Shown: positions 1-33,030 of the stretch, piece after piece
Position numbering within the stretch: position 1 is the stretch's first letter
Layout of the letters: the number at the start of each line of letters is the position of its first letter
Assembly (NCBI GenBank): GCA_028716745.1
Contig: JAQUPE010000001.1
Coordinates: 30,203-94,202, forward strand
Reading direction: 5' to 3'
Origin: Minisyncoccota bacterium
Lineage (GTDB): Bacteria > Patescibacteriota > Minisyncoccia > UBA6257 > 02-FULL-45-10c
DNA: 64,000 nucleotides
Position numbers and translations under genes: made by a program
Notes under the pieces: model-generated
The model's database searches: none
Told to the model about the DNA's origin: nothing
The model's input: only the letters and a program-made list of their open reading frames with translations

Positions 1-2
1 CA

Positions 3-812
3 AATAAAGTTTCTGAAAAATTAGCCAAAATAAGTTCTAATTATTATATTCCTCCGAAAAATGACTGGGGTTATTATATTAATAGTTGTGTTGGCGGCGG
101 TATTTCTTTGCCGACAAAAGAAAATATACTTCCGAGCGCCTACAAGGCTTATTCTATATTTCAAGATAGTAAGACAACTGCGATTGCTACTATAAATGCT
201 ATTGCCGGATCTTCCGCAACAGCAATTGGAAATATTAAAAATTCACGATATCAGTGCGGTACAGATTGGGGTGGCGCGCCAAGGTATTGCAATTGTCCTA
301 ATAATTTTACTGTTTTGCCGTCCAGCAGCAGCTTGCAGCATACATATAGTATTAATTCTTGGGACAATCCGGGATCTGTTTCTTCTTCTAATACCGGCAA
401 TTCATTTATAGATGTTAATGTCGACTATAACCAGGAATATGCTTACATTATAAAAGTTCCGGCCACTGATCGCGATGGTTATATAACTACCTATTCAGAT
501 CCTATTACTGGAGAAACCCCAAATGTTCCTCCTGCGCCTCCGGCTTTGCCTTCCTGCAGTTTTTCTGCCGATCCATCAATGGTTCCGGCTCACTCAGCTT
601 CCAAAATCACTTGGTCTTGCCAAGAATCCAATACTTGCGATTTATATGAAGGCACAAGCAAAGTAGATTCCGGAATAAGCGGCGATTATACGGCAAACAT
701 AGGAACTACTTCTAAAATATATAAGCTTTCTTGTTCGGGAAACGGGGGATTAAAAGATTTTTCTCTTACAATAAAGGTTTCTTCTATCCAATATAAAGAA
801 GTAGCGCCGTAA
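3..812 (+). CDS. secreted Cys-rich Fn3/Ig-like surface protein, 5' partial (paralog of 2684..4441)
   Basis: Reading frame is open back to the window start. C-terminal ~260 aa align with the C-terminus of the 585-aa protein (shared YxCGTDWxG..KYCNCP, VPATDRxGxTTTYSDPIT, SCxFSAxPxxVPAHSxSKIxWxCQxSxxCxLYEGTS, C-terminal YxEVAP). Confidence 0.6.
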   Translation, partial: NKVSEKLAKISSNYYIPPKNDWGYYINSCVGGGISLPTKENILPSAYKAYSIFQDSKTTAIATINAIAGSSATAIGNIKNSRYQCGTDWGGAPRYCNCPNNFTVLPSSSSLQHTYSINSWDNPGSVSSSNTGNSFIDVNVDYNQEYAYIIKVPATDRDGYITTYSDPITGETPNVPPAPPALPSCSFSADPSMVPAHSASKITWSCQESNTCDLYEGTSKVDSGISGDYTANIGTTSKIYKLSCSGNGGLKDFSLTIKVSSIQYKEVAP

Positions 813-832
813 ATTTTAATTAAAACAAAAAT

Positions 833-1408
833 ATGAAAAAGAAAATTATATTAATTATTGCGGTGTTAATCGTTGTTGTAATATTCGCGGCTTTGTACTG
901 CGTAACTCTTAGGGTAAAAGTTATTCCGGTGGAAGCTTCGGCGCTGGAATTAAATCCCGAAGTTATTCAGTTGGATAATTTTTCGGTTAATATTCCAAAG
1001 GGATGGGTAAAAGAGGATTCCGGTACCGATTTAATGATGATTAATCCGGTGGGAATAAAATTATCGGATAATGAAAGCGCTATAGAATATTTTTCGGTAA
1101 AAAAAGAGCAGTTGGCGGGAGTAGCTATAAATAAATATATCGAGAATTTCAAAAGTTTTTTGGACAGAGTAACCGTAAAAAGCGAATTTACGCATCCGGA
1201 AAATGGGGATTTTATAAATACTTTGCCGGCTTTTTACATTGAATCGGATACCGAGCTTAAGGGGATAAGCTTCAAGAAGCTTAATGTGATGATAGTCGAG
1301 GATGCCGGAAATATTTGGCAGTTAAATTACAGCGTTTCTGCAGAAAATTGGAGCAAATATAAAGCTGCTTACTATAAATCGGTTAGCCAGTTTGCATTAA
1401 AACAGTAG
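833..1408 (+). CDS. small N-terminally membrane-anchored protein (paralog of 4450..5100)
   Basis: N-terminal hydrophobic helix; shared NPVG..., FKKxNV..., NxWxLNY motifs with the 216-aa protein. Confidence 0.55.
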   Translation: MKKKIILIIAVLIVVVIFAALYCVTLRVKVIPVEASALELNPEVIQLDNFSVNIPKGWVKEDSGTDLMMINPVGIKLSDNESAIEYFSVKKEQLAGVAINKYIENFKSFLDRVTVKSEFTHPENGDFINTLPAFYIESDTELKGISFKKLNVMIVEDAGNIWQLNYSVSAENWSKYKAAYYKSVSQFALKQ

Positions 1409-1454
1409 GGTTTTTTGGGCGAAAACACGGCTCATTACCGTGTTTTTGTTTACC

Positions 1455-1483
1455 TTGACTTTTCCTCTAAAATGTGCTATATT
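1455..1483 (+). promoter_or_regulatory. sigma70-like promoter TTGACT-N17-TATATT
   Basis: ttgact(1455-1460) + 17-nt spacer + tatatt(1478-1483), ~70 nt upstream of the 1556 ATG. Confidence 0.45.
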
Positions 1484-1555
1484 AAAAGTAGTAAAAATAA
1501 GCTTTTTTGACATAAGAAGTAATATAAGCTGAAAAATCTTGAAGGAGGCGTAGCC

Positions 1556-2602
1556 ATGAAGAAAATCTTTTTGGCAGTCGCAGTCGTTTCAATGGTCTAC
1601 GGATTGGCTATCGCCGACGGAATGGAAAACATTTCCGGCATAGAACAGTCCAGCCAGGTTGTTGTCGATACCGCCGCTACGGCAGGTGTCGGCATCAGCT
1701 CACCGGCAGTTTCTGGAGTTGAGAAATCGACTTCCACGGAACTGGATGGTCGCAGACAGAGAAGGCTGGAAAGAATCCAGCTGGAAGAGTCTGAGACGAA
1801 ATCCGGACACAGGTGGCAGGTTTCTGTTTCCAAGGAATCCGATTATGGATTTGGGAAAACTAACCTGGAATCACTGGATCATTTTGTGCAGATTATCAAC
1901 AATAGTTTAGTTACTGTTGATATTCCTTTCATTAATTTTCACTATGAATTTGAGGAGCACGATCCTGTTTTGTGTCCGCGCCTTAGAAACATCCAGACAG
2001 AGAACCGAAAGTTGGCGATTGGATGGAGAAATGGAGTTGTAGAAATTGGAGTGTCTGCTGGCCAGTGGTCTGCAAATACTGATGGCTTTCATCAGGATTT
2101 TTACGGACACATTGGAAATCCAGCAGTAATATTTTTTACAACCACCGTTGATATGTCGCCGATTTACGTCTCTGTAACATCTACCATGCTTGATTTAAAA
2201 TTCAACCTTAACGCTCCCAGTAATGACAAGAGGCGGACATGGTGTCCGTTTATTGACCTGCAGGCGGGGACGTTAAAGCTTGATATTTCGGGCAAGGTAA
2301 AGTTCTGGGGAGATGAGTACACGAGCTCAAATCCAGATTATCCTTATCAGGGATATCCTATTATTCCGGTGCAGTACGAATTCAGCTCTGGCGATCCGGT
2401 TATAGCAGGAAAGGTTACGCTGGGGATGGAAGCAAGAATTATTTGCGGCTTGAAAGTCGGCGCAAATATCAGCTTCCGCAGCGGAAACGCCTATTACTGG
2501 CTGACGCGTACCGGAGACGACGGAAAGGTTGTAAGGAAGAAGATAGAAAAGGGGCTCGAGGATGGGGCGGTTGTTTCAACCTCCATTTCTTACGAGTTCT
2601 AG
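1556..2602 (+). CDS. secreted beta-rich protein with signal peptide and C-terminal Phe (OMP-like signature), higher G+C
   Basis: MKKIFLAVAVVSMVYGLAIADG signal peptide; ends ...SISYEF; strong SD ggaggcgtagccATG; G+C visibly higher than flanks. Confidence 0.5.
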   Translation: MKKIFLAVAVVSMVYGLAIADGMENISGIEQSSQVVVDTAATAGVGISSPAVSGVEKSTSTELDGRRQRRLERIQLEESETKSGHRWQVSVSKESDYGFGKTNLESLDHFVQIINNSLVTVDIPFINFHYEFEEHDPVLCPRLRNIQTENRKLAIGWRNGVVEIGVSAGQWSANTDGFHQDFYGHIGNPAVIFFTTTVDMSPIYVSVTSTMLDLKFNLNAPSNDKRRTWCPFIDLQAGTLKLDISGKVKFWGDEYTSSNPDYPYQGYPIIPVQYEFSSGDPVIAGKVTLGMEARIICGLKVGANISFRSGNAYYWLTRTGDDGKVVRKKIEKGLEDGAVVSTSISYEF

Positions 2603-2614
2603 ATCGTATCATTG

Positions 2615-2656
2615 CCGCCAGGCGCATGAAGTTATGCACCTGGCGGATTTTTTTAT
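2615..2656 (+). terminator. rho-independent terminator
   Basis: 12-bp stem ccgccaggcgcat/atgcacctggcgg (1 mismatch) followed by a T-run. Confidence 0.6.
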
Positions 2657-2683
2657 ATTTATAATCCTGATATAATTAGTTTA

Positions 2684-4441
2684 ATGAAAAAATCTTTGAT
2701 TTTAGTTGGTTCGTTTATTTGTTTGGTGGGAATATTTGGTTTTTCAAAATCGGCTAATGCCTGGTTTTGCTGGCCCAGTCCTGTTGATGATTGTAATGTT
2801 CAGTGTAGGAATCTTGCTCCAAATAGCGACTTGAATGTTTATACTATTAACGCGGATTGGGTTGGAACAAGAGGTCATACAGATGGCAGAGGAGAGGGCG
2901 TGGTTAGTATGAGGGGTTTGGCAACAGAGACTTATTTTATTAAAGACTCGGCGGGTAATGTTGATACATTGGCAAAAGTTACTGGAAGCGGACATTGCGC
3001 TAATGTTCCTCCATATGTTACTTCTTCGATTGCTTTATATAGCGCTCCTCCTAAATATCCTTTGCCGGCAGGCGGAGTAGTCCAGGGTTCCGCTGTTTAC
3101 TATGTTGCAAAAGTACAAAGTGTTTTAGGTAATTGGATTTCTGGTGGTATAAATTTTAATTTTTCTTCTACAATTTCTGAGTATGCTCGTAATTATGAGG
3201 TGGTAGATGACCGTACTCATGGCCATGAAAGCAATGCTTGTTTTAGTTGTGGAAATAATATTAGCTGGCCAAGTTGTGCCGAAGAATTTGGCGCCGATTA
3301 TACCGAAATAGATCGTAAAGAATTTGGCGGTTTTTGTCATTGTGAAAAGAGAATAACTTGCCGCAAAAGTCAGGGTTTTCAAGATATGGCTATTTCCGGT
3401 TATACAAATGCAATGATAAATACGCCAGGTAATATTTTCACCGGAACAATTTCTGCTACTGATAGCGCTGGCAATACGACCACATCAAGTGCTACCACCC
3501 CGGTTATTCCTCCTCCACAAGAAATTAAAGCCACGGGAACGGCTAGCTGTAGCTGCTCCAATGGAGTTTTAACGACGTCTTTGAATGTAAGCGGAACCCA
3601 AGGGGTTGAGTATGCAATTTTAAGATCGGATAAAGTTGTTGATAATTTAGCGGAAAGGACAAGTAATTATTATATTCCGGGAAATGGCTGGTGGGGGCCG
3701 ATAAGCAGCTGTGTAAATGGAGTTGTTAAAACTTTGCTTCCAATTGAAAATGGATTGCCTTCCGGGTATCAGACATATTCAATATTTAAGGATGGCGCAG
3801 TAATGCCTGGTCTTAGTGGATTATCTAGTGCTTGGAATATACCCATAGGAACAGGTACTAACCAAAAATATTGCTGTGGCACAGATTGGTTTGGTAATTG
3901 CAATAAATATTGCAATTGTCCTTCTTATACAACATTGCCATCAAGCTCTAATAATAAACACAAATATTCAGCGGTGAGCTGGGGGAGCCCAACGACAGTT
4001 TTGCCTTCGCATGTTGGAGATGGAAACGCTTATGGTGATCAAGGATTAACCCCGGAGACTGGCTATGTTTATCTTGTCCGAGTTCCGGCGACAGACAGAG
4101 AAGGTTTTACAACTACTTATTCAGATCCAATAACAGTAACAACTCCGGCATGCGTTGCGCCGGTGGTAGTCCCTCTTCCTTCTTGCGCTTTTTCTGCTAG
4201 TCCGACCACTGTTCCTGCGCACTCAATTTCCAAAATATCTTGGGATTGTCAGAATTCTATAAATTGCAGTTTATATGAAGGCACGAGCGTCGTTGCTTCA
4301 GGCATAAAGAAGGATTATACGGCAAATATAGGAACCGATGATAAAACATATAAACTTTCTTGTACGGGCGATGGAGGGTCAAAAGATTTTACTCTTAGTG
4401 TAAAAGTTTCTTCTGTCCAATATCAGGAAGTGGCGCCATAA
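2684..4441 (+). CDS. secreted Cys-rich protein with C-terminal Fn3-like and Ig/PKD-like domains
   Basis: Signal peptide MKKSLILVGSFICLVGIFGFSKSANA; many Cys; YVYLVRVPATDREGFTTTYSDPITV resembles an Fn3 domain; paralog of 3..812. Confidence 0.6.
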   Translation: MKKSLILVGSFICLVGIFGFSKSANAWFCWPSPVDDCNVQCRNLAPNSDLNVYTINADWVGTRGHTDGRGEGVVSMRGLATETYFIKDSAGNVDTLAKVTGSGHCANVPPYVTSSIALYSAPPKYPLPAGGVVQGSAVYYVAKVQSVLGNWISGGINFNFSSTISEYARNYEVVDDRTHGHESNACFSCGNNISWPSCAEEFGADYTEIDRKEFGGFCHCEKRITCRKSQGFQDMAISGYTNAMINTPGNIFTGTISATDSAGNTTTSSATTPVIPPPQEIKATGTASCSCSNGVLTTSLNVSGTQGVEYAILRSDKVVDNLAERTSNYYIPGNGWWGPISSCVNGVVKTLLPIENGLPSGYQTYSIFKDGAVMPGLSGLSSAWNIPIGTGTNQKYCCGTDWFGNCNKYCNCPSYTTLPSSSNNKHKYSAVSWGSPTTVLPSHVGDGNAYGDQGLTPETGYVYLVRVPATDREGFTTTYSDPITVTTPACVAPVVVPLPSCAFSASPTTVPAHSISKISWDCQNSINCSLYEGTSVVASGIKKDYTANIGTDDKTYKLSCTGDGGSKDFTLSVKVSSVQYQEVAP

Positions 4442-4449
4442 ATAAATAT

Positions 4450-5100
4450 ATGAAAAAATCAAGAAAAATTTTAGTAATTGTTACCATGGTTGTCTTTATC
4501 GCTTCAATTGCGGCTTCGGCTTATTCTGTTTATTTATCCCGTTCAAATAATAAAGCAGTGGAAGGATCGCACCCAATTTTATTGTCCAATGCTTCTGTTC
4601 CGCAAAAAATAGCAAACTTAATACAGATTGATAAAAATATTTTTTCACTTAAAATCCCGGAAGGTTGGGAAGATCAAAGCCCGGCCAATACGGATTTTTT
4701 CCAGTTTTTAAATCCAGTCGGCGTGGTTAAGCCCGATTTAACCGGAGAAATAATAGAATTCGTTTCTGTTAATAAGGAAAGCCTTGGAGGAAAGAAGCCC
4801 AGCGTCTATGTAAGCGAATTTAAAAAGCTTCTTGATTCAAGGTATCCGCAAAGCAAGTTTGTATATTCGGAAGATAAAATATTTATAGGCGATCGTCCTG
4901 CTACATATATTGAAACAGACAATGTTATTGAAGGGATGAATTTTAAAAAGTTTAATGTGCTTATAGATGGCGGAAACAACAAAGACATCTGGGTTTTGAA
5001 TTATAATGTTTGGGCGGATAACTGGAATTTAAATAAAGATATCATTTATCAATCCGCAGCGTCATTTACGGATAAAACAAGCTCTACCACGGCTCAATAA
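4450..5100 (+). CDS. small membrane-anchored protein (paralog of 833..1408)
   Basis: N-terminal transmembrane segment; homology to the 191-aa protein. Confidence 0.55.
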   Translation: MKKSRKILVIVTMVVFIASIAASAYSVYLSRSNNKAVEGSHPILLSNASVPQKIANLIQIDKNIFSLKIPEGWEDQSPANTDFFQFLNPVGVVKPDLTGEIIEFVSVNKESLGGKKPSVYVSEFKKLLDSRYPQSKFVYSEDKIFIGDRPATYIETDNVIEGMNFKKFNVLIDGGNNKDIWVLNYNVWADNWNLNKDIIYQSAASFTDKTSSTTAQ

Positions 5101-5104
5101 TTTT

Positions 5105-5137
5105 AAAAAGCTCCGCAATGCGGAGCTTTTTATTTTT
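5105..5137 (+). terminator. rho-independent terminator (gctccgc-aat-gcggagc + T-run)
   Basis: hairpin plus TTTTTATTTTT. Confidence 0.65.
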
Positions 5138-5269
5138 GATTGACTAAAAGCCTTATTTTAGGTATTTTGTTTTCAGTATTATTGATAAAAGAAAATAAGA
5201 AAATTTTACAAAAGAGGAGGTGGATTGCTGGGAGCAGCGCGGGAAATTTAAAATTAAAAGGAGAAAGAT

Positions 5270-5995
5270 ATGAAAGTCAGAATTTTTCTGTTGTTGGCGG
5301 TAATGGTGTTGATTCTCTCGGCGTGCGGAACGTTCAAGTCTGAGTTGGTAAGGTATCAATATGTCCCTTACAACCAGAGTGAGCTGAAGCAGACCAAAGA
5401 AAACGTCACGCTGGAAAAAATCGATTCCAAAACCACGCCGGAGCATTTCTATTTTAGCGCTCCCAAGCGTGATGCCTATGGTCGGGCGCAAGTGGATAGC
5501 AACGGCCGGGCCATCATAACTCGCGGATGCGTTCGTCTAAAGGGACAGATCTGGGAACAATTCATAATAACCAACAACACCAACCGCGTTTTACGTTTAG
5601 GGAAGGTCTCTGTGAGATTGATTGATCCGGCGGGTAATCAGTATTACCCATTGACCAGGCAGGATTTAATTACTGCTACGATGCAGGTCTATGGAATTTC
5701 TTTAAACGAAGTAAACACGCCGTTCAATTTTGTGAAAGTGATAGATAACTTAACGGAAGTTTTGCCGAACATGTCTTTTACCGGCTGGCTTGTTTTTTAT
5801 GCGCCAACCTCGGAAATGCCTGGAGTTTGGAAAATAGGCATTTATGACATGCCGGTGAAAACCGAAGAGTCCGGGGAGGTAAAAAAAGTAGCCTTTTTCG
5901 AATTCAATACAGTTCTCAAAAAATTTGTTGATATTTACGAACAGAGCGGAATGTTCGGTAAATCAACTTTGGTTGAGACGAAAGAGGTGAAATAG
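5270..5995 (+). CDS. lipoprotein, hypothetical (higher G+C)
   Basis: MKVRIFLLLAVMVLILSAC lipobox; SD aaaaggag; composition richer in G+C than neighbours. Confidence 0.5.
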   Translation: MKVRIFLLLAVMVLILSACGTFKSELVRYQYVPYNQSELKQTKENVTLEKIDSKTTPEHFYFSAPKRDAYGRAQVDSNGRAIITRGCVRLKGQIWEQFIITNNTNRVLRLGKVSVRLIDPAGNQYYPLTRQDLITATMQVYGISLNEVNTPFNFVKVIDNLTEVLPNMSFTGWLVFYAPTSEMPGVWKIGIYDMPVKTEESGEVKKVAFFEFNTVLKKFVDIYEQSGMFGKSTLVETKEVK

Positions 5996-6102
5996 ATCGA
6001 TTTGAACTAAGGAGATGAAACGGGTCGATAAAGCAATTGCGGGGAACGACGAGTAGTCGTTCCTTTTTTATTTTTATCGGTTTTTTTGATATAATTTAGA
6101 TA

Positions 6103-6489
6103 ATGAAACTTGGTAAAAACAGCGGACAGGCGATGTTGCTTACGGTTTTAATAATGACGGGAACTGTCATAGGCGCTACTGCTATAGCGGGCTATTTAAT
6201 GCTTTCACAGGTAAGGCAGGCGACGGATGTCGTCAATTCTTCCAAGGCTATATTTGCGGCGGATACGGGAATGGAATGGGCTTTTTATAATTTTTTTCAA
6301 TTAGATAATCAGGTTTGTCCCGGAGGCGCAAAAGACTATTTGTCGGAAAGAGAAAATGGCACGGATATAATGGAAAATGGATCATCTTTTACGGCTTCCT
6401 GTTCTTCTACTTCGGAACTCACAACTCTTAAATCCATTGGTGATTCCTACGATACTTATCGTGCTCTTGAGGCCTACATCGCTTATTAG
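6103..6489 (+). CDS. small N-terminally anchored protein, hypothetical
   Basis: ORF with N-terminal hydrophobic helix; TGaTATAAT extended -10 at 6087-6095 immediately upstream (possibly leaderless). Confidence 0.4.
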   Translation: MKLGKNSGQAMLLTVLIMTGTVIGATAIAGYLMLSQVRQATDVVNSSKAIFAADTGMEWAFYNFFQLDNQVCPGGAKDYLSERENGTDIMENGSSFTASCSSTSELTTLKSIGDSYDTYRALEAYIAY

Positions 6490-6503
6490 CGCGTAAATAA
6501 TAA

Positions 6504-13578: not shown

Positions 13579-14040
13579 ATGGCATTAAAAGTTCCTTTCT
13601 ATAAACAAAGCGCTAATTATACATGCGGTCCCACCTGCCTACAGATGGTTTTTAAGTTTAACGGAATATTTAAAAGCGAGAAAAAGTTAGCCAAAGAGGC
13701 TCATACGCGCTCTCGGCATGGAACATATCGTCGGCATATGGCAGAAGCAGCGCGTAAAAATGGATTTTTTTGTTTTATTAAAAGCGGTTCTTCTCTTAAA
13801 GATATTGAAAAATTTATAAGGCTAAAATTTCCTATAATAGTTTATTTTATTGAACCCGCAGATAATATTGAGCATTATGCCGTAATTATAGGGTTGGATA
13901 AAAATAAAATTATTATGAACGATCCCTGGAACGGAAAGGGATTTAAAATGAATAAAATGGAATTTTTATCAAGATGGAAAAGCGAAAATGGCAGAATAAA
14001 TAAATGGATGATGGTTGCCTCAAAAACCGGATTTAATTGA
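13579..14040 (+). CDS. peptidase C39-like (papain-fold) domain protein
   Basis: YKQSANYTCGPTCLQMVF resembles the C39 Q..CGxxCLxM catalytic region; downstream His (EHYAVII) and Asp/Asn (NDPWNG). Confidence 0.5.
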   Translation: MALKVPFYKQSANYTCGPTCLQMVFKFNGIFKSEKKLAKEAHTRSRHGTYRRHMAEAARKNGFFCFIKSGSSLKDIEKFIRLKFPIIVYFIEPADNIEHYAVIIGLDKNKIIMNDPWNGKGFKMNKMEFLSRWKSENGRINKWMMVASKTGFN

Positions 14041-14070
14041 AAAATAACGCCATTTGTTTTATAATATATC

Positions 14071-14143
14071 CGCGGGATGGAGCAGTAGTTAGCTCGTCTG
14101 GCTCATAACCAGAAGGTCGTTGGTGCAATTCCAACTCCCGCAA
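14071..14143 (+). tRNA. initiator tRNA-fMet (CAT)
   Basis: cgcggga...gctcataacc...tcccgcaa; C1:A72 mismatch and three G-C pairs in the anticodon stem typical of the bacterial initiator; closely resembles the E. coli tRNA-fMet sequence. Confidence 0.85.
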
Positions 14144-14299
14144 CCGCGAAAAATGCGCTAAAGCGCATCTCGCGGCAGGCCATCAGAAATGGACTGACGC
14201 GGAATAAGCCCCCACAATTGTGGGGGGTTTATTTTATGCGAGCCCCGCGATAAAATCCTCAGATTTTATTTTGCGGGGCAAGTAATTTATAATTTAGTA

Positions 14300-14563
14300 A
14301 TGCATTATGTATATTTGTTAGAAAATATTGAAAATAAAAATTGGTATATAGGATTCACAGAAAACATTAAGAGAAGACTATTTGAGCATAATAATGGAAG
14401 GGGCGGACGGACAACAAGAATTGGTAAATCATGGAAAATGATATATTGCGAGGTTTATTTGAATAAAGAAGATGCTGTGGGTAGAGAGAAATTTTTAAAG
14501 GGTGGATCTGGAAGAAAATATTTAAAAAAGCAGTTGACTCATTATTTAAAAAATATAGAATAG
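14300..14563 (+). CDS. GIY-YIG nuclease domain protein
   Basis: YVYLLEN...WYIGFTENIKRRLFEHN = GIY-YIG motif; 87 aa. Confidence 0.7.
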   Translation: MHYVYLLENIENKNWYIGFTENIKRRLFEHNNGRGGRTTRIGKSWKMIYCEVYLNKEDAVGREKFLKGGSGRKYLKKQLTHYLKNIE

Positions 14564-15398: not shown

Positions 15399-15788
15399 AT
15401 GCAAAGCGACTGTGTCGAAGGTTCTAAATCCCTCAAAGGGGGATATGTTCCTTTGAGGGAAGGGCTGGATTTCAAAGGCAGCGCTGTGGGAGTTGTCCGG
15501 ATGATTTTTCAGGAAATCGACAGGCCTCTTTTTGAAGAGGATATTCTCTGCTATGCCGAGATTTTTTCAAAAAAGAAATTCGGTGCGGCAAGAATAAAAA
15601 CTGCAATTTCCTGCCTGAATCAACAGGGCGCTTTTGAAAGAATCGGAAATAAATATTGTTTGAAAAGCGAATTTTCAAACAAAAAAGTTTCCGAAACAGC
15701 AGGAAAGAAGACAAAGGAAGTTGTCGTGGAGGCGACAGAGTTGGCCAGCGTTGGTTTGGCGTTAACCAGCGCCCCCGTGACGGCCTGA
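15399..15788 (+). CDS. high-G+C hypothetical winged-helix-like protein, paralog of 14646..15200
   Basis: SD aaaaggaggcggtgaATG; ...QQGAFERIGNKYCLK shared motif. Confidence 0.45.
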   Translation: MQSDCVEGSKSLKGGYVPLREGLDFKGSAVGVVRMIFQEIDRPLFEEDILCYAEIFSKKKFGAARIKTAISCLNQQGAFERIGNKYCLKSEFSNKKVSETAGKKTKEVVVEATELASVGLALTSAPVTA

Positions 15789-15950
15789 ATTAATACTCGA
15801 TTTGGTATCCTCGTTGCACAGCAGCGCGAGGATATTTTTTTACCTAAATATTGCCTGTACATTATAAGTTACTATTAACATATGCTATACAAGTTAAAAA
15901 CGCGTTTAATTTGTCAAAACCCGCTTAATTCATTATTATTTTAAATAAGA

Positions 15951-26950: not shown

Positions 26951-27919
26951 ATGAATAAAAAAGGATTTATTGAGATGCCGGTTTTAATAGCTATTATTAC
27001 GGGAATTATTGTAGTTGGAAGCGCCGGATATCTTGGAATAGGGAAATATATGGCTGGAAAGTCCAATAGGGCGACAACCACTCAGGAAGTGCTTTGCTCT
27101 AAAAAAGACGGAGCCAAGAAAATGAATATGGAGGAGGCGAAGCAGATTGCTGCCAAGAGCGAATGCGGGAATAAATTTTTGGAAGGAGTTGTTTGTAACG
27201 ATAATTCCGGAACATGGTGGTTTAACTTGGATATTAAAAAGCAGGGATGCAGCCCCGCCTGTGTTATTGATGTAGAAACGAAAAAAGCGGAAATAAATTG
27301 GAGATGCACGGGTTTGATTATACCGGAAGCCGGTAAAACCAATACGGCTACAGAAGCCCCGAAAACAACTGCGCCGGCGACCAAGCCGTCCAGCAAGCCG
27401 GTAACTTCCGGAACTACAACCACTACTACCAACACAACAGCTCAAACCGGCTCGCAGGCGACTACCACACAAACTACAACGGCAACAACTACGCCAGCGA
27501 CAACCGCTACGACTACGCCGACAACTTCTACAACAACTACCGCCACTACCACTACCACAACCACAACAACGCCTGCGGTTTCTGCCACCACCACTTCTTT
27601 TACTCCGAAAATTTCTTCTAATATAACAACCACTCCGACAATCGCCTCAAATGGCAGTCCGGCTATAATTTTGGCTTTTGATACGGATAAAGAATGTGTC
27701 AGCACATTTTATTATTGGATAGATCCAAGCTATATCAGTACAAATAAGGGCCGTTATTTGGATAATCAGATTAATCATTCCGCGATTTTATATAACCTTG
27801 ATAATCTTAGTGAGGTTTATAATTGGAAAGCGAAATGTGTTGCGGTTGACGCCTCTTATGTGGAAACAGGAAACTTAACTTTCCAGCTAGAACATGCCTC
27901 TTCGTTTCCAGCTCCGTAA
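26951..27919 (+). CDS. pilin-like protein with long Thr-rich low-complexity linker
   Basis: N-terminus MNKKGFIEMPVLIAIITGIIVVG is prepilin-like; ~80-aa T/A/P-rich tract (TTTTTNTTAQTG...TTTTTTTTTP) then a C-terminal globular part. Confidence 0.5.
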   Translation: MNKKGFIEMPVLIAIITGIIVVGSAGYLGIGKYMAGKSNRATTTQEVLCSKKDGAKKMNMEEAKQIAAKSECGNKFLEGVVCNDNSGTWWFNLDIKKQGCSPACVIDVETKKAEINWRCTGLIIPEAGKTNTATEAPKTTAPATKPSSKPVTSGTTTTTTNTTAQTGSQATTTQTTTATTTPATTATTTPTTSTTTTATTTTTTTTTPAVSATTTSFTPKISSNITTTPTIASNGSPAIILAFDTDKECVSTFYYWIDPSYISTNKGRYLDNQINHSAILYNLDNLSEVYNWKAKCVAVDASYVETGNLTFQLEHASSFPAP

Positions 27920-27930
27920 ATAAATATTTT

Positions 27931-28587
27931 ATGGCTACTTATGAAGATCTAATACAAGGGTTAGTTAAAGACGGCTATTTGAAAACGCCGGCGATAATTG
28001 ACGCATTTAAGGCGATAGACCGCAAAGATTTTTTGCCAAATGAAATGCAAGACAAGGCGTATGAAAATACAGCTTTGCCGATTGGACATAGCCAGACAAT
28101 ATCTCAGCCGCTGGTGGTAGCGTTTATGCTTGAATTATTGAATATAAAGCCGGGAGAAAAGATTTTGGAAATAGGCACAGGCTCCGGATGGCAAACCGCC
28201 ATAATTGCTCACGTTGTAAGTCATATTCAAACGGCAGGCGAGGGAGGCTGGCAGAAAAATATAGTTTCCGTTGAGCGCGTAAAAGAGCTTCATGATTTTT
28301 CCAGAGAAAGAATAGCTAAATATGGCTATGAAAAAGACGGGCTGGTGGAGTTGGTTTTGGGAGATGGATCTTTGGGTCATCCGGTTGGCGCGCCTTATGA
28401 TAAAATAATTGCCGCCGCTTCGGCTGCTGAAATGCCGGAGGCATGGAAGGATCAGTTGAAGATTGGGGGAAAGATAGTGGCGCCGGTAAAAGAAAGTATT
28501 ATTGTTTTAGAAAAAACCGCCAAGGATAAAATGGAAATGAAAGAGTATTTTGGATTTAGTTTCGTGCCGTTAATTCCCAAGCCTTAA
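27931..28587 (+). CDS. pcm: protein-L-isoaspartate O-methyltransferase
   Basis: TISQPLVVAFMLELL, LEIGTGSGWQTAI SAM-binding motif. Confidence 0.85.
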   Translation: MATYEDLIQGLVKDGYLKTPAIIDAFKAIDRKDFLPNEMQDKAYENTALPIGHSQTISQPLVVAFMLELLNIKPGEKILEIGTGSGWQTAIIAHVVSHIQTAGEGGWQKNIVSVERVKELHDFSRERIAKYGYEKDGLVELVLGDGSLGHPVGAPYDKIIAAASAAEMPEAWKDQLKIGGKIVAPVKESIIVLEKTAKDKMEMKEYFGFSFVPLIPKP

Positions 28588-28632
28588 TGGGGTGAGGGAG
28601 AGTAGGCGGGGGCAAAAATGAGGAAAGAAAAA

Positions 28633-28672
28633 GTTGTATATTATATGATAATTGTCACATATAATATACAAC
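28633..28672. repeat. 40-bp palindromic repeat copy 1 (14-bp perfect inverted arms gttgtatattatat / atataatatacaac, 12-nt spacer gataattgtcac)
   Basis: read directly; the two arms are exact reverse complements. Confidence 0.8.
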
Positions 28673-28726
28673 TCAAGATTTGAGGGTGGGAGAGAGGGGA
28701 TGGAAAAGAAAAAAGGAAAAATGGAG

Positions 28727-28764
28727 GTTGTATAGTATATGATAATTGTAACATATAGTATACA
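28727..28764. repeat. palindromic repeat copy 2 (gttgtatagtatat-gataattgtaac-atatagtataca)
   Basis: Tandem ~100-bp unit duplication with copy 1; followed by the G-rich tract gaggggcggaggggaaatgggtgggggcggtgggg. Confidence 0.75.
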
Positions 28765-28812
28765 GGTTGGAGATTGAGGGGCGGAGGGGAAATGGGTGGG
28801 GGCGGTGGGGTT

Positions 28813-28841
28813 GACACTAAGTTTTCAATATAATATATTAA
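28813..28841 (+). promoter_or_regulatory. sigma70-like promoter TTGACA-N17-TATATT upstream of rplJ
   Basis: ttgaca at 28813-28818, -10-like tatatt 17 nt downstream. Confidence 0.45.
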
Positions 28842-28953
28842 AAGTAATCCGTAGACCGTAGGCGAACAATAAGTCCTACCGAGGAATTAAGCCAAAACGA
28901 TTTTTGGCGTTTCTACGGACCACTAAAGGTCCATTTTTATTAATCAAAAATAT
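28842..28953 (+). ncRNA. structured rplJ 5' leader (putative L10(L12) autoregulatory leader)
   Basis: ~110-nt UTR with long-range complementarity (tccgtagaccgtagg ... cgtttctacggacc); position is conserved for the L10 leader in bacteria. Confidence 0.4.
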
Positions 28954-32238: not shown

Positions 32239-32598
32239 AAGATAATTTTCTAATCATTAGTACTATAAAAGTGAGGAAATTCCCTCTGTTAATATCTTTT
32301 CAGAGAACCCCCATTTATCCGCATTTAATGCGGATTTTTTATCCACTTTATTATCTTTACAATGGGGAGAAGTGGAGTAATATAAATCTTAGGTGGGGGA
32401 AAGTGGATAACTATGGGGATAACTACCGAATCTGGGGATAAGTATTCCGTTGTCCTCTTATTTCAACCCACTTCGCGAATCCAGCGATTCGCTCGTTTGT
32501 CCTCGCTGATTCGTCCGCTGCGAGCGGAACCATGCCGAATCAGCTCCGGGGGTTTCAATAAGAGAACAACTACATTTTAAAATTTAAATAAGAAAAAT

Positions 32599-33030
32599 AT
32601 GTTTATTGGAGAATTCCAACATAATATAGACGTAAAGGGCAGGGTTGCCGTTCCTGCTAAATTCCGACAGCAATTAGGCACGGGTGCAATTATCACTCGC
32701 GGGCTTGATGGCTGTCTTTTTGTTTACACGGCGAAAGAGTGGGAGCTATTGGCGGAAAAAATAAAATCAATGTCTTTGCTTAAATCCGATGCGCGCGCTT
32801 TTGCCAGATTGATGTTTGCCGGAGCTGTTGATGTGGATATAGATTCGCAGGGGAGAATATTGGTTCCAGAATATCTTAGAAAATACGCAAATTTAAATAA
32901 AGAAACTTTTATAACGGGATTATTCAATCGTTTTGAAATATGGGATAAGGAAAATTGGAAAAAATATAAATCAAAAACAGAATCGTCTTCGGACGATATA
33001 GCCGAAAAATTAGGGGAGTTAGGAATATAA
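32599..33030 (+). CDS. mraZ: transcriptional regulator MraZ
   Basis: MFIGEFQHNIDVKGRVAVPAKFRQQLG, duplicated MraZ/SpoVT-AbrB half-domains. Confidence 0.9.
   Translation: MFIGEFQHNIDVKGRVAVPAKFRQQLGTGAIITRGLDGCLFVYTAKEWELLAEKIKSMSLLKSDARAFARLMFAGAVDVDIDSQGRILVPEYLRKYANLNKETFITGLFNRFEIWDKENWKKYKSKTESSSDDIAEKLGELGI

Follow-up and report, generated by a model that had tools for sequence, protein, structure and literature searches.

Repetitive extragenic palindromic (REP) sequences, in the passages that define them (PMC3733652), are palindromic units of 20-40 bp which are extragenic, lie mostly 3' of open reading frames (ORFs) and between unidirectional or convergent ORFs, are species-specific and form hairpins as single-stranded DNA or RNA; the same passages name as their defining tag an unpaired GTAG or CGTC tetranucleotide at one end. 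Their stems are given as G+C-rich in the corresponding part of a second account (PMC3184786). The present analysis concerns an AT-rich palindrome of 36 bp, TGTATAnTATATGATAATTGTnACATATAnTATACA, in a 64-kb stretch of DNA (the window) from a metagenome-assembled genome (MAG) of Candidatus Pacebacteria (Paceibacterota; candidate phyla radiation, CPR), whose ribosomal protein L10 is 100% identical to MDD5547344.1, encoded there on a contig of 146 kb. The palindrome is present on the plus strand at 28635-28670 (copy 1), 28729-28764 (copy 2) and 39604-39639 (copy 3), with zero matches expected by chance, and in a degenerate form on the minus strand at 15856-15891 (copy 4). Our tentative reading, with a rough probability of 0.45, is that the copies belong to a lineage-specific, hairpin-forming and non-autonomous repeat family resembling REP sequences and miniature inverted-repeat transposable elements (MITEs).

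A miniature mobile or REP-like element had been one of the suggestions of an earlier note on this DNA, and it is the one that fits best, as the copies are intergenic, follow gene ends or terminators, are nearly identical and are absent from a relative. At 36 bp (42 bp if the longer arms of copy 1 are counted) the element lies within the 20-40-bp class, is capable of forming a hairpin and is species-specific; like REP sequences its copies are placed behind genes, namely after pcm, after the convergent pair asd/recR and after the ORF at 15399-15788. Membership of the REP class in the strict sense fails, however. No GTAG or CGTC tetranucleotide is present, as the foot of the stem has plus-strand bases GTTG, GTTG, CCTG and CCTG and minus-strand bases GTTG, CCTG, GTTG and CTTG; the stems are AT-only where those of REP sequences are G+C-rich; the adjacent copies 1 and 2 are direct, whereas neighbouring REP units are opposite; the copy number appears low (four in 64 kb); and no RAYT (Y1 HUH) gene was found by Pfam among the 67 ORFs of the window. 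It is in kind that the element behaves like REP/MITE-type sequences.

Bacterial MITEs are usually about 100 bp long or more. The element shares with them that it is short, non-coding and intergenic, has inverted-repeat ends and is present or absent in a lineage-specific manner. At 36-42 bp, in contrast, it is far shorter, its arms are not bordered by a target-site duplication (the flanks read GT/AC, GT/GG, CC/AC and CC/AG), and no parent insertion sequence with the same ends was seen in the window, where the arms have no match beyond the four elements and no transposase was found. The family is probably of the REP/MITE kind and would represent a new variant in a CPR bacterium.

Four copies of one unit

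The unit consists of 13-nt arms, TGTATAnTATATG, with two G/C positions each and no more, around an asymmetric 10-nt centre, ATAATTGTnA. Its core, TATATGATAATTGTnACATATA, has three exact matches in the window, all on the plus strand, while none was found in 100 dinucleotide-preserving shuffles of the window even with three mismatches allowed. The three copies which the earlier note had placed at 28633, 28727 and 39603 were thereby recovered, and its description of copies 2 and 3 as sharing the core with slightly degenerate arms proved correct, each having a single arm mismatch. For copy 1, the perfect palindrome stood but not its proposed dimensions (14-bp arms around a 12-nt spacer): the inverted repeat extends over 28632-28647 and 28658-28673, with 16-nt arms and a 10-nt loop, 42 bp in all. 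The one variable position of the arms, position 7, is symmetry-related on both arms and forms T-A in copy 1, a G.G mismatch in copy 2 and a T.C mismatch in copy 3. Copies 1 and 2 are identical at 33/36 positions and copy 3 matches either of them at 34/36; a single base differs among the three loops.

The earlier note had counted three copies only, and the fourth, which was first met in a looser search, is about 31/36 identical, with five mismatches in minus orientation. A profile built from copies 1-3 alone recovers it at E=7.8e-4 (E=4.3e-5 once the tail described below is included), with 16.3 bits on the minus strand against 8.1 bits on the plus strand. Because copy 4 lies on the minus strand, the orientation of the family is not uniform, and the idea of a uniform orientation relative to replication was dropped. 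The profile of copies 1-3 identified no fifth copy at E<1 in the window. Solitary half-sites are not enriched there: 8 of the 14 loose half-site matches fall inside the four elements, and the other 6 correspond to the chance expectation of 5.6. A scan of the window for near-perfect inverted repeats with arms no shorter than 11 and a loop no longer than 14 returned 36, among which copies 1-3 are some of the longest and the sole all-AT ones; most of the other 33 have GC stems with A/T runs alongside, as in intrinsic terminators.

A sequence this AT-rich and simple, with two of its copies adjacent, might be thought a local low-complexity duplication with chance similarity elsewhere, or an artefact of assembly. 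In an independent Logan assembly of run SRR22315506, two contigs match copies 1 and 2 base for base, and both stop inside copy 2, a break that could in itself be taken as a sign of such an artefact. Yet the shuffled windows yielded no match, loci 11 kb (copy 3) and 13 kb (copy 4) away are 34/36 and about 31/36 identical, and an independent assembler gives the identical sequence for copies 1 and 2. The tandem pair did not arise through misassembly, and this trivial explanation, highly improbable at best, is effectively refuted.

The four copies are without exception intergenic. Copies 1 and 2 are found within the 223 bp that separate the pcm stop codon (28585-28587) from the -35 box of rplJ, in a pcm-rplJ gap of 366 bp; by Pfam, the genes on either side encode a protein-L-isoaspartate methyltransferase (pcm, 27931-28587), L10 (28954-29475) and L7/L12 (29585-29950). 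The earlier note had put them just upstream of the rplJ promoter and leader, and this is indeed their position: the promoter, TTGACA-17-TATATT, occupies 28811-28839 and an L10-leader-like RNA 28831-28948. Together (28811-28948, plus strand) these neighbours bound the element and are not part of it. The centres of copies 1 and 2 are approximately 194 and 100 bp upstream of the likely rplJ start. Copy 3, as had been stated, resides in the gap between the convergent genes asd and recR: on one side is their bidirectional GC-rich terminator (39542-39561), on the other the stop codon of recR (39673-39675), and no promoter lies downstream. Copy 4 is flanked by the terminator of the ORF at 15399-15788 and by the promoter of a tRNA-Met gene, TTGTCA-17-TATTAT (15911-15939, the TTGTCA at 15911-15916); its centre lies at about -73 from the tRNA-Met start. 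A check of placement, as the earlier note had proposed, thus gave for the window exclusively intergenic copies, one in a convergent gap and three upstream of promoters at inconsistent distances.

The nearest relative and the mobile-type reading

The closest available relative, GCA_028715395.1, shares 80% protein identity with the window in L10, 77% in RecR and 75% in PheS. Gene order is kept at all three loci and the element is missing at each, the corresponding gaps being 77-193 bp shorter in the relative. The gap between pcm and rplJ measures 366 bp in the window and 173 bp in the relative, where the promoter follows 3 nt past the pcm stop; that between asd and recR measures 150 bp versus 34 bp, the latter containing the terminator only; and that upstream of tRNA-Met measures 162 bp versus 85 bp, with the T-run of the terminator abutting the conserved promoter in the relative. 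For comparison, nine other syntenic gaps, measured by hand from ORF and gene coordinates, differ between window and relative by -36 to +76 bp. The comparison of the rplJ upstream region, a check also proposed in the earlier note, thereby showed that the whole block of 223 bp is absent from GCA_028715395.1. No palindrome was found at the three orthologous promoter or gap regions, and the element profile detected no copy in approximately 50 kb of this genome, against about three expected at the density of the window; in four more distant relatives it detected nothing. The absence of the element from the same gaps of the closest relative argues for a small REP/MITE-like repeat and against a conserved regulatory site. 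There is no sign that the element regulates rplJ or any other neighbour.

At the level of public DNA collections (GTDB species representatives, JGI metagenomes and IMG/VR, scanned for the exact core), the 19-20-nt core was found in eight GTDB species representatives, four metagenome contigs and one viral contig, in none of them with the arms, and these arm-less occurrences look like chance matches of AT-rich sequence. A pattern of the arms alone matches seven contigs in IMG/VR, four of them giant-virus MAGs; in AT-rich DNA, exact matches to such AT-only arms may be due to chance. BLAST of the 223-bp block against plasmid and phage collections returned no match. Judged from these searches, the family at this level of conservation appears to be restricted to its source organism. 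A limited full-text search of the literature returned no description of dispersed palindromic repeats in genomes of CPR/Patescibacteria.

The reading as a REP/MITE-like repeat draws on the discreteness of the unit, the high identity between loci with unrelated flanks, the intergenic and presumably 'safe' positions, the absence in the relative and the decay of copy 4. The unit would have been copied into at least three intergenic gaps, each time past the end of a gene or its terminator and short of whatever promoter or gene end comes next, and it may have spread as a discrete piece of approximately 36-50 nt. Its hairpin would probably form in single-stranded DNA and be acted on in trans by an enzyme whose gene lies outside the window, elsewhere in the genome, any effect on transcription or mRNA being a by-product. 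The G-rich and purine-rich flanks might then represent local context (target, filler or microhomology) and are not demonstrably part of the unit. Copy 4, which has lost the plus-strand hairpin and retains a modest one on the minus strand, fits an unmaintained relic.

Several points weigh against this reading. Only four copies are visible, so that the notion of a dispersed family rests on 64 kb; no transposase, recombinase or Y1/HUH gene was found by Pfam among 67 ORFs of the window; and no target-site duplication abuts the palindrome. The relative, at 75-80% identity in three flanking proteins, is too distant for empty sites to be defined to the base; since intergenic DNA is not alignable at this distance, the boundaries of the element are approximate, and the gaps have expanded by more than the unit itself. 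A gain polarised by an outgroup is unprovable here, but to assume that the relative suffered three separate, precise losses is less plausible than to assume gains in the lineage of the window. The identity among copies 1-3 could equally mean purifying selection on a protein-binding site, and the 94 bp between copies 1 and 2, about nine helical turns, would suit cooperative binding.

The last two points lead to the rival view that the palindrome is a duplex site, under selection, of a dimeric DNA-binding protein, be it a lineage-specific regulator, a nucleoid protein or a tyrosine-recombinase-type core of the lox or dif type. The dyad symmetry is perfect, the asymmetric centre is conserved, and the palindrome is conserved while its flanks are not; that the one varying position is symmetry-related in both arms, with changes that are not compensatory, would suit a readout of sequence over structure, the helical spacing of copies 1 and 2 is favourable as mentioned, and strong promoters (rplJ and tRNA-Met) follow at two of the three loci. 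Neither a constant distance to the promoter nor conservation at orthologous promoters, as would characterise the operator of a dimeric factor, was found, however: the distances of about -194, -100 and -73 are inconsistent, copy 3 is located at the 3' ends of convergent genes where no promoter follows, and the orthologous promoters of GCA_028715395.1 are without the site. Neither a recombinase nor an obvious cognate regulator is encoded in the window, and, as described above, solitary half-sites are not enriched in it. The suggestion of a site for a dimeric regulator, nucleoid or partition protein, which had also been put forward in the earlier note, is weakened accordingly, and we regard a selected binding site of any of these types as rather unlikely.

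The resemblance to loxP, FRT and dif deserves separate mention, as these sites likewise consist of two inverted arms of about 13 bp and a short asymmetric spacer that gives direction. Tyrosine-recombinase cores typically have arms of 11-13 bp and spacers of 6-8 bp; the arms of the element, at 13 nt, are within that range, and its spacer, at 10 nt, is longer. In addition, the copies number four, of which copies 1 and 2 form a close direct repeat, and two direct recombination sites 94 bp apart would be unstable under an active recombinase, for which no gene was found in the window. GC skew is positive across the whole window, which therefore contains no origin and no terminus or dif region.

Other known sites and signals were also compared with the element. 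By eye and without a motif scan, no LexA/SOS box (CTGT-N8-ACAG) is seen, a Fur/PerR/Zur 7-1-7 box is matched in its left half, TGATAAT, alone, and there is no fit to NrdR, IHF, DnaA or parS sites. No sigma-70 promoter is called inside the element; copy 1 contains TTGTAT...TATAAT 20 bp apart, but copies 2 and 3 no longer have this -10. A micro-ORF, MIIVTY(N/S/T)IQ..., that could be read from the loop lacks a Shine-Dalgarno sequence, and its ATG is missing in copy 4. Half-sites of the kind seen in uptake signals do not occur outside the four elements.

A more specific variant of a mobile origin would have the palindrome serve as the recognition hairpin or site of an undescribed mobile or recombination system of Patescibacteria, an AT-rich and untagged counterpart of REP/RAYT whose enzyme resides elsewhere in the genome. 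Such an enzyme could be of the HUH/Y1 type, a tyrosine recombinase or a structure-specific nuclease, for example a lineage-specific, stand-alone GIY-YIG protein encoded 1.3 kb from copy 4. We consider a dedicated system of this kind quite improbable. The Pfam search of the 67 ORFs, which covered transposase, recombinase, Y1/HUH, Nop and Tas domains, found none of these. With regard to the broader REP/MITE-like reading, CPR/Patescibacteria genomes are small and streamlined, which is the context that lends interest to such a repeat: if it entered recently beside rplJ, tRNA-Met and recR, streamlined CPR genomes would still host active or recently active non-autonomous elements. The element could then serve as a strain marker, and it would point to a mobilising enzyme; with four copies in one MAG, its practical weight is limited.

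Hairpins, flanks and G-rich tracts

As RNA, copies 1, 2 and 3 are predicted to fold into single hairpins of -16.9, -13.0 and -8.3 kcal/mol (z about -5.1 to -2.7). The DNA hairpins are weaker, that of copy 1 reaching -12.2 kcal/mol (z about -5). The plus-strand hairpin of copy 4 is at the level of shuffled sequence (z about +0.3 as RNA and +0.95 as DNA), and its minus strand folds modestly (-11 kcal/mol, z -2.3). The whole region of 231 nt around copies 1 and 2, taken as RNA, reaches -36.7 kcal/mol (z=-6.5) by pairing of copy 1 with copy 2 in a duplex of about 38 bp.

These folds would be consistent with a role at the level of RNA, in which the hairpin acts in a read-through transcript as a processing or stability element, or as a weak terminator on the minus strand; in one variant the duplex between copies 1 and 2 could be a target of RNase III that parts pcm from the rplJL mRNA. 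A terminator scan made no call from the pcm stop up to the elements, so that read-through is plausible, and on the minus strand a T-rich tract comes after each of copies 1-3. The comparison of the copies points the other way. No real compensatory substitutions or covariation in the stem occur across the four copies, in which 85.9% of the cells are paired against 88.4% in shuffled controls, a comparison that has little power with four sequences; what is conserved is the palindrome as sequence. Moreover, copy 4 has no plus-strand fold, no Rfam family matches the element, and a strong GC-rich bidirectional terminator is already present beside copy 3. Nor do the copies qualify as intrinsic terminators, having AU-only stems (AT-only in the DNA) and T-rich tails on the minus strand only; the terminator scan calls none of them. 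A function in RNA therefore appears to us an improbable explanation.

Tandem palindromic hairpins with linkers are also a feature of the TIGR arrays of TIGR-Tas systems, which occur in Patescibacteria (PMC12045711; bioRxiv 10.64898/2026.09.09.750476), and a remnant or mini-array of an RNA-guide system, TIGR or CRISPR, was therefore considered. A TIGR stem-loop, in the section of the latter source that describes it, comprises a pair of 14-nt boxC-spacer-boxD intervals that are separated by no more than 15 bp and lie inside a palindromic stem (bioRxiv 10.64898/2026.09.09.750476). A regular-expression search of both strands at three loci found no such dual spacers: no pair of these intervals lies within a stem, and there is none whatsoever at copy 3. 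The loops of 10 nt are nearly invariant between units rather than variable, only two units stand in tandem, and neither a nop or tas gene nor a cas gene is located nearby, the neighbours of copies 1 and 2 being pcm and rplJ. For CRISPR, the weak match to Rfam CRISPR-DR50 (19.3 bits, E=3) remains far below the gathering score of 47, and the arrangement is that of two adjacent units 58 nt apart plus solo copies. We take the probability of a guide array to be close to nil.

The earlier note had described copies 1 and 2 as parts of a tandemly duplicated unit of about 100 bp. Two copies with a period of 94 bp, separated by 58 nt, were indeed found, but the duplication outside the palindrome is weak: the 47-nt 5' flanks share 25/47 positions (p=0.036 versus composition-preserving shuffles), and the likeness of the 3' flanks is not significant. 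On the other hand, a tail of 12 nt is alike (9/12, p=0.0009) in copies 1 (ACTCAAGATTTG) and 3 (ACTCAGGATTAT), which are 11 kb apart. The tail of copy 1, ACTCAAGATTTGA, occupies 28671-28683 on the plus strand and runs to the G-run; that of copy 3 together with a GGGGG run occupies 39640-39656 on the same strand. As the likeness between the flanks of the 94-bp unit hardly exceeds chance, what is conserved is the palindrome with a tail of about 12 nt up to the G-run, a unit which was either moved by itself or held constant while its surroundings drift.

The G-runs themselves, which had been noted behind the copies, begin 12-13 nt 3' of the palindrome, at 28684 (copy 1), 28778 (copy 2) and 39652 (copy 3); none follows copy 4. 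Around copies 1 and 2 they form part of a purine-rich block of 223 bp (28588-28810, plus strand), composed of G-blocks, A-rich tracts and the two copies, and missing from the pcm-rplJ gap of GCA_028715395.1. All three G-blocks lie on the plus strand. G-block 0 (TGGGGTGAGGGAGAGTAGGCGGGGGC, 28588-28613) comes right after the pcm stop and is the left edge of the block absent from the relative; G-block 1 (28682-28703) lies between copies 1 and 2; and G-block 2 (28776-28810) abuts the rplJ -35 box. The last of these holds the sole canonical G-quadruplex motif of the window (28778-28802), and several further G-blocks have three tracts. That tracts capable of forming G-quadruplexes are unusual here, as the earlier note had it, is borne out for their clustering, with 7 runs of at least four G within 28589-28810 where about 0.5 are expected, but not for their rarity, the window containing 152 such runs. 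The G-rich tracts are real, and may or may not be linked to the palindrome.

Short direct repeats of G-runs stand on either side of the inserted blocks, GGGGGTTTT at 39556/39652 and TGGGGT at 28588/28806. The GGGGGTTTT at 39556 constitutes the 3' arm of the asd/recR terminator, and this arm recurs with its T-run at 39652. These repeats may be target duplications, microhomology or coincidence. It might be speculated that insertion was directed to G-runs, which would account for the G-blocks as well as for these bracketing repeats.

The G-blocks also contain GTGGG/TGGGG words, two of which alone are spaced about 9 bp apart, and an identification as MraZ boxes is a weak lead. A separate set of boxes, (G)TGGGG / GTGGA(T), with a period of about 10 bp, is found at 32363-32440, upstream of mraZ (32599-33030) and 3' of a TTTACA...TAATAT promoter. 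A block GGTGGGG..GTGGATAACTATGGGGATAAC..ATCTGGGGATAA is kept upstream of mraZ in stretches of three relatives (L015 10665-10740, L017 1865-1931 and L020 5303-5348). The boxes at 32363-32440 presumably correspond to a TGGGN-repeat operator of MraZ, which they fit better than DnaA boxes.

Further observations in the window and its relative

The L10-leader-like RNA at 28831-28948 scores 38.2 bits against Rfam L10_leader, below the gathering score of 44, and its sequence is kept in a stretch of a relative (L015 8670-8810). It appears to represent a divergent CPR version of L10_leader that is missed at the default thresholds of Rfam.

A group of three genes at 13579-14563, 1.3 kb from copy 4, comprises a Peptidase_C39-like ORF (13579-14040), an extra tRNA-Met (14071-14145) and an ORF for a stand-alone GIY-YIG nuclease of 87 aa (14300-14563). 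All three are missing in the syntenic stretch of GCA_028715395.1 (L032), and any link of this group to the palindromes is speculative. In the same stretch of the relative (L032 17033-21056), past the gene after L33, genes for a large serine recombinase, an HTH_3 protein, a RuvC-like protein and a TraG/VirD4-like coupling protein are found, an arrangement suggestive of an integrated element; in the window, a TraG/VirD4-like ORF is located at 60265-61800, in another context.

Nearly identical pairs of terminator-like hairpins with GC stems occur at distant loci, at 5104-5132/20906-20938 and at 62624-62649/63014-63039, with the cores CTCCGCAATGCGGAG and AAAAAACACCCACCyGGGTGTTTTAT. At 26951-27919, between PNP_UDP_1 and pcm, an ORF of 322 aa with an N-terminal membrane anchor and a long Thr-rich low-complexity region, but no Pfam match, is inserted; the relative has at this position only a minus-strand ORF of 51 aa (L015 7716-7871). 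Upstream of ligA, the region 1-6500 contains seven consecutive plus-strand ORFs (108-6489) which have no Pfam match at E<=1e-5. Finally, two small ORFs with a strong Shine-Dalgarno sequence (AGGAGGTGATTG) follow tRNA-Lys at 44413-44508 and 44632-44685; their products, MNKGRSFASDESGCCGHGGVGSGITPNIKRG and MKKSRGYHDDGGGCCGP, are Gly/Cys-rich peptides with a common GCCG motif and could be peptide precursors.

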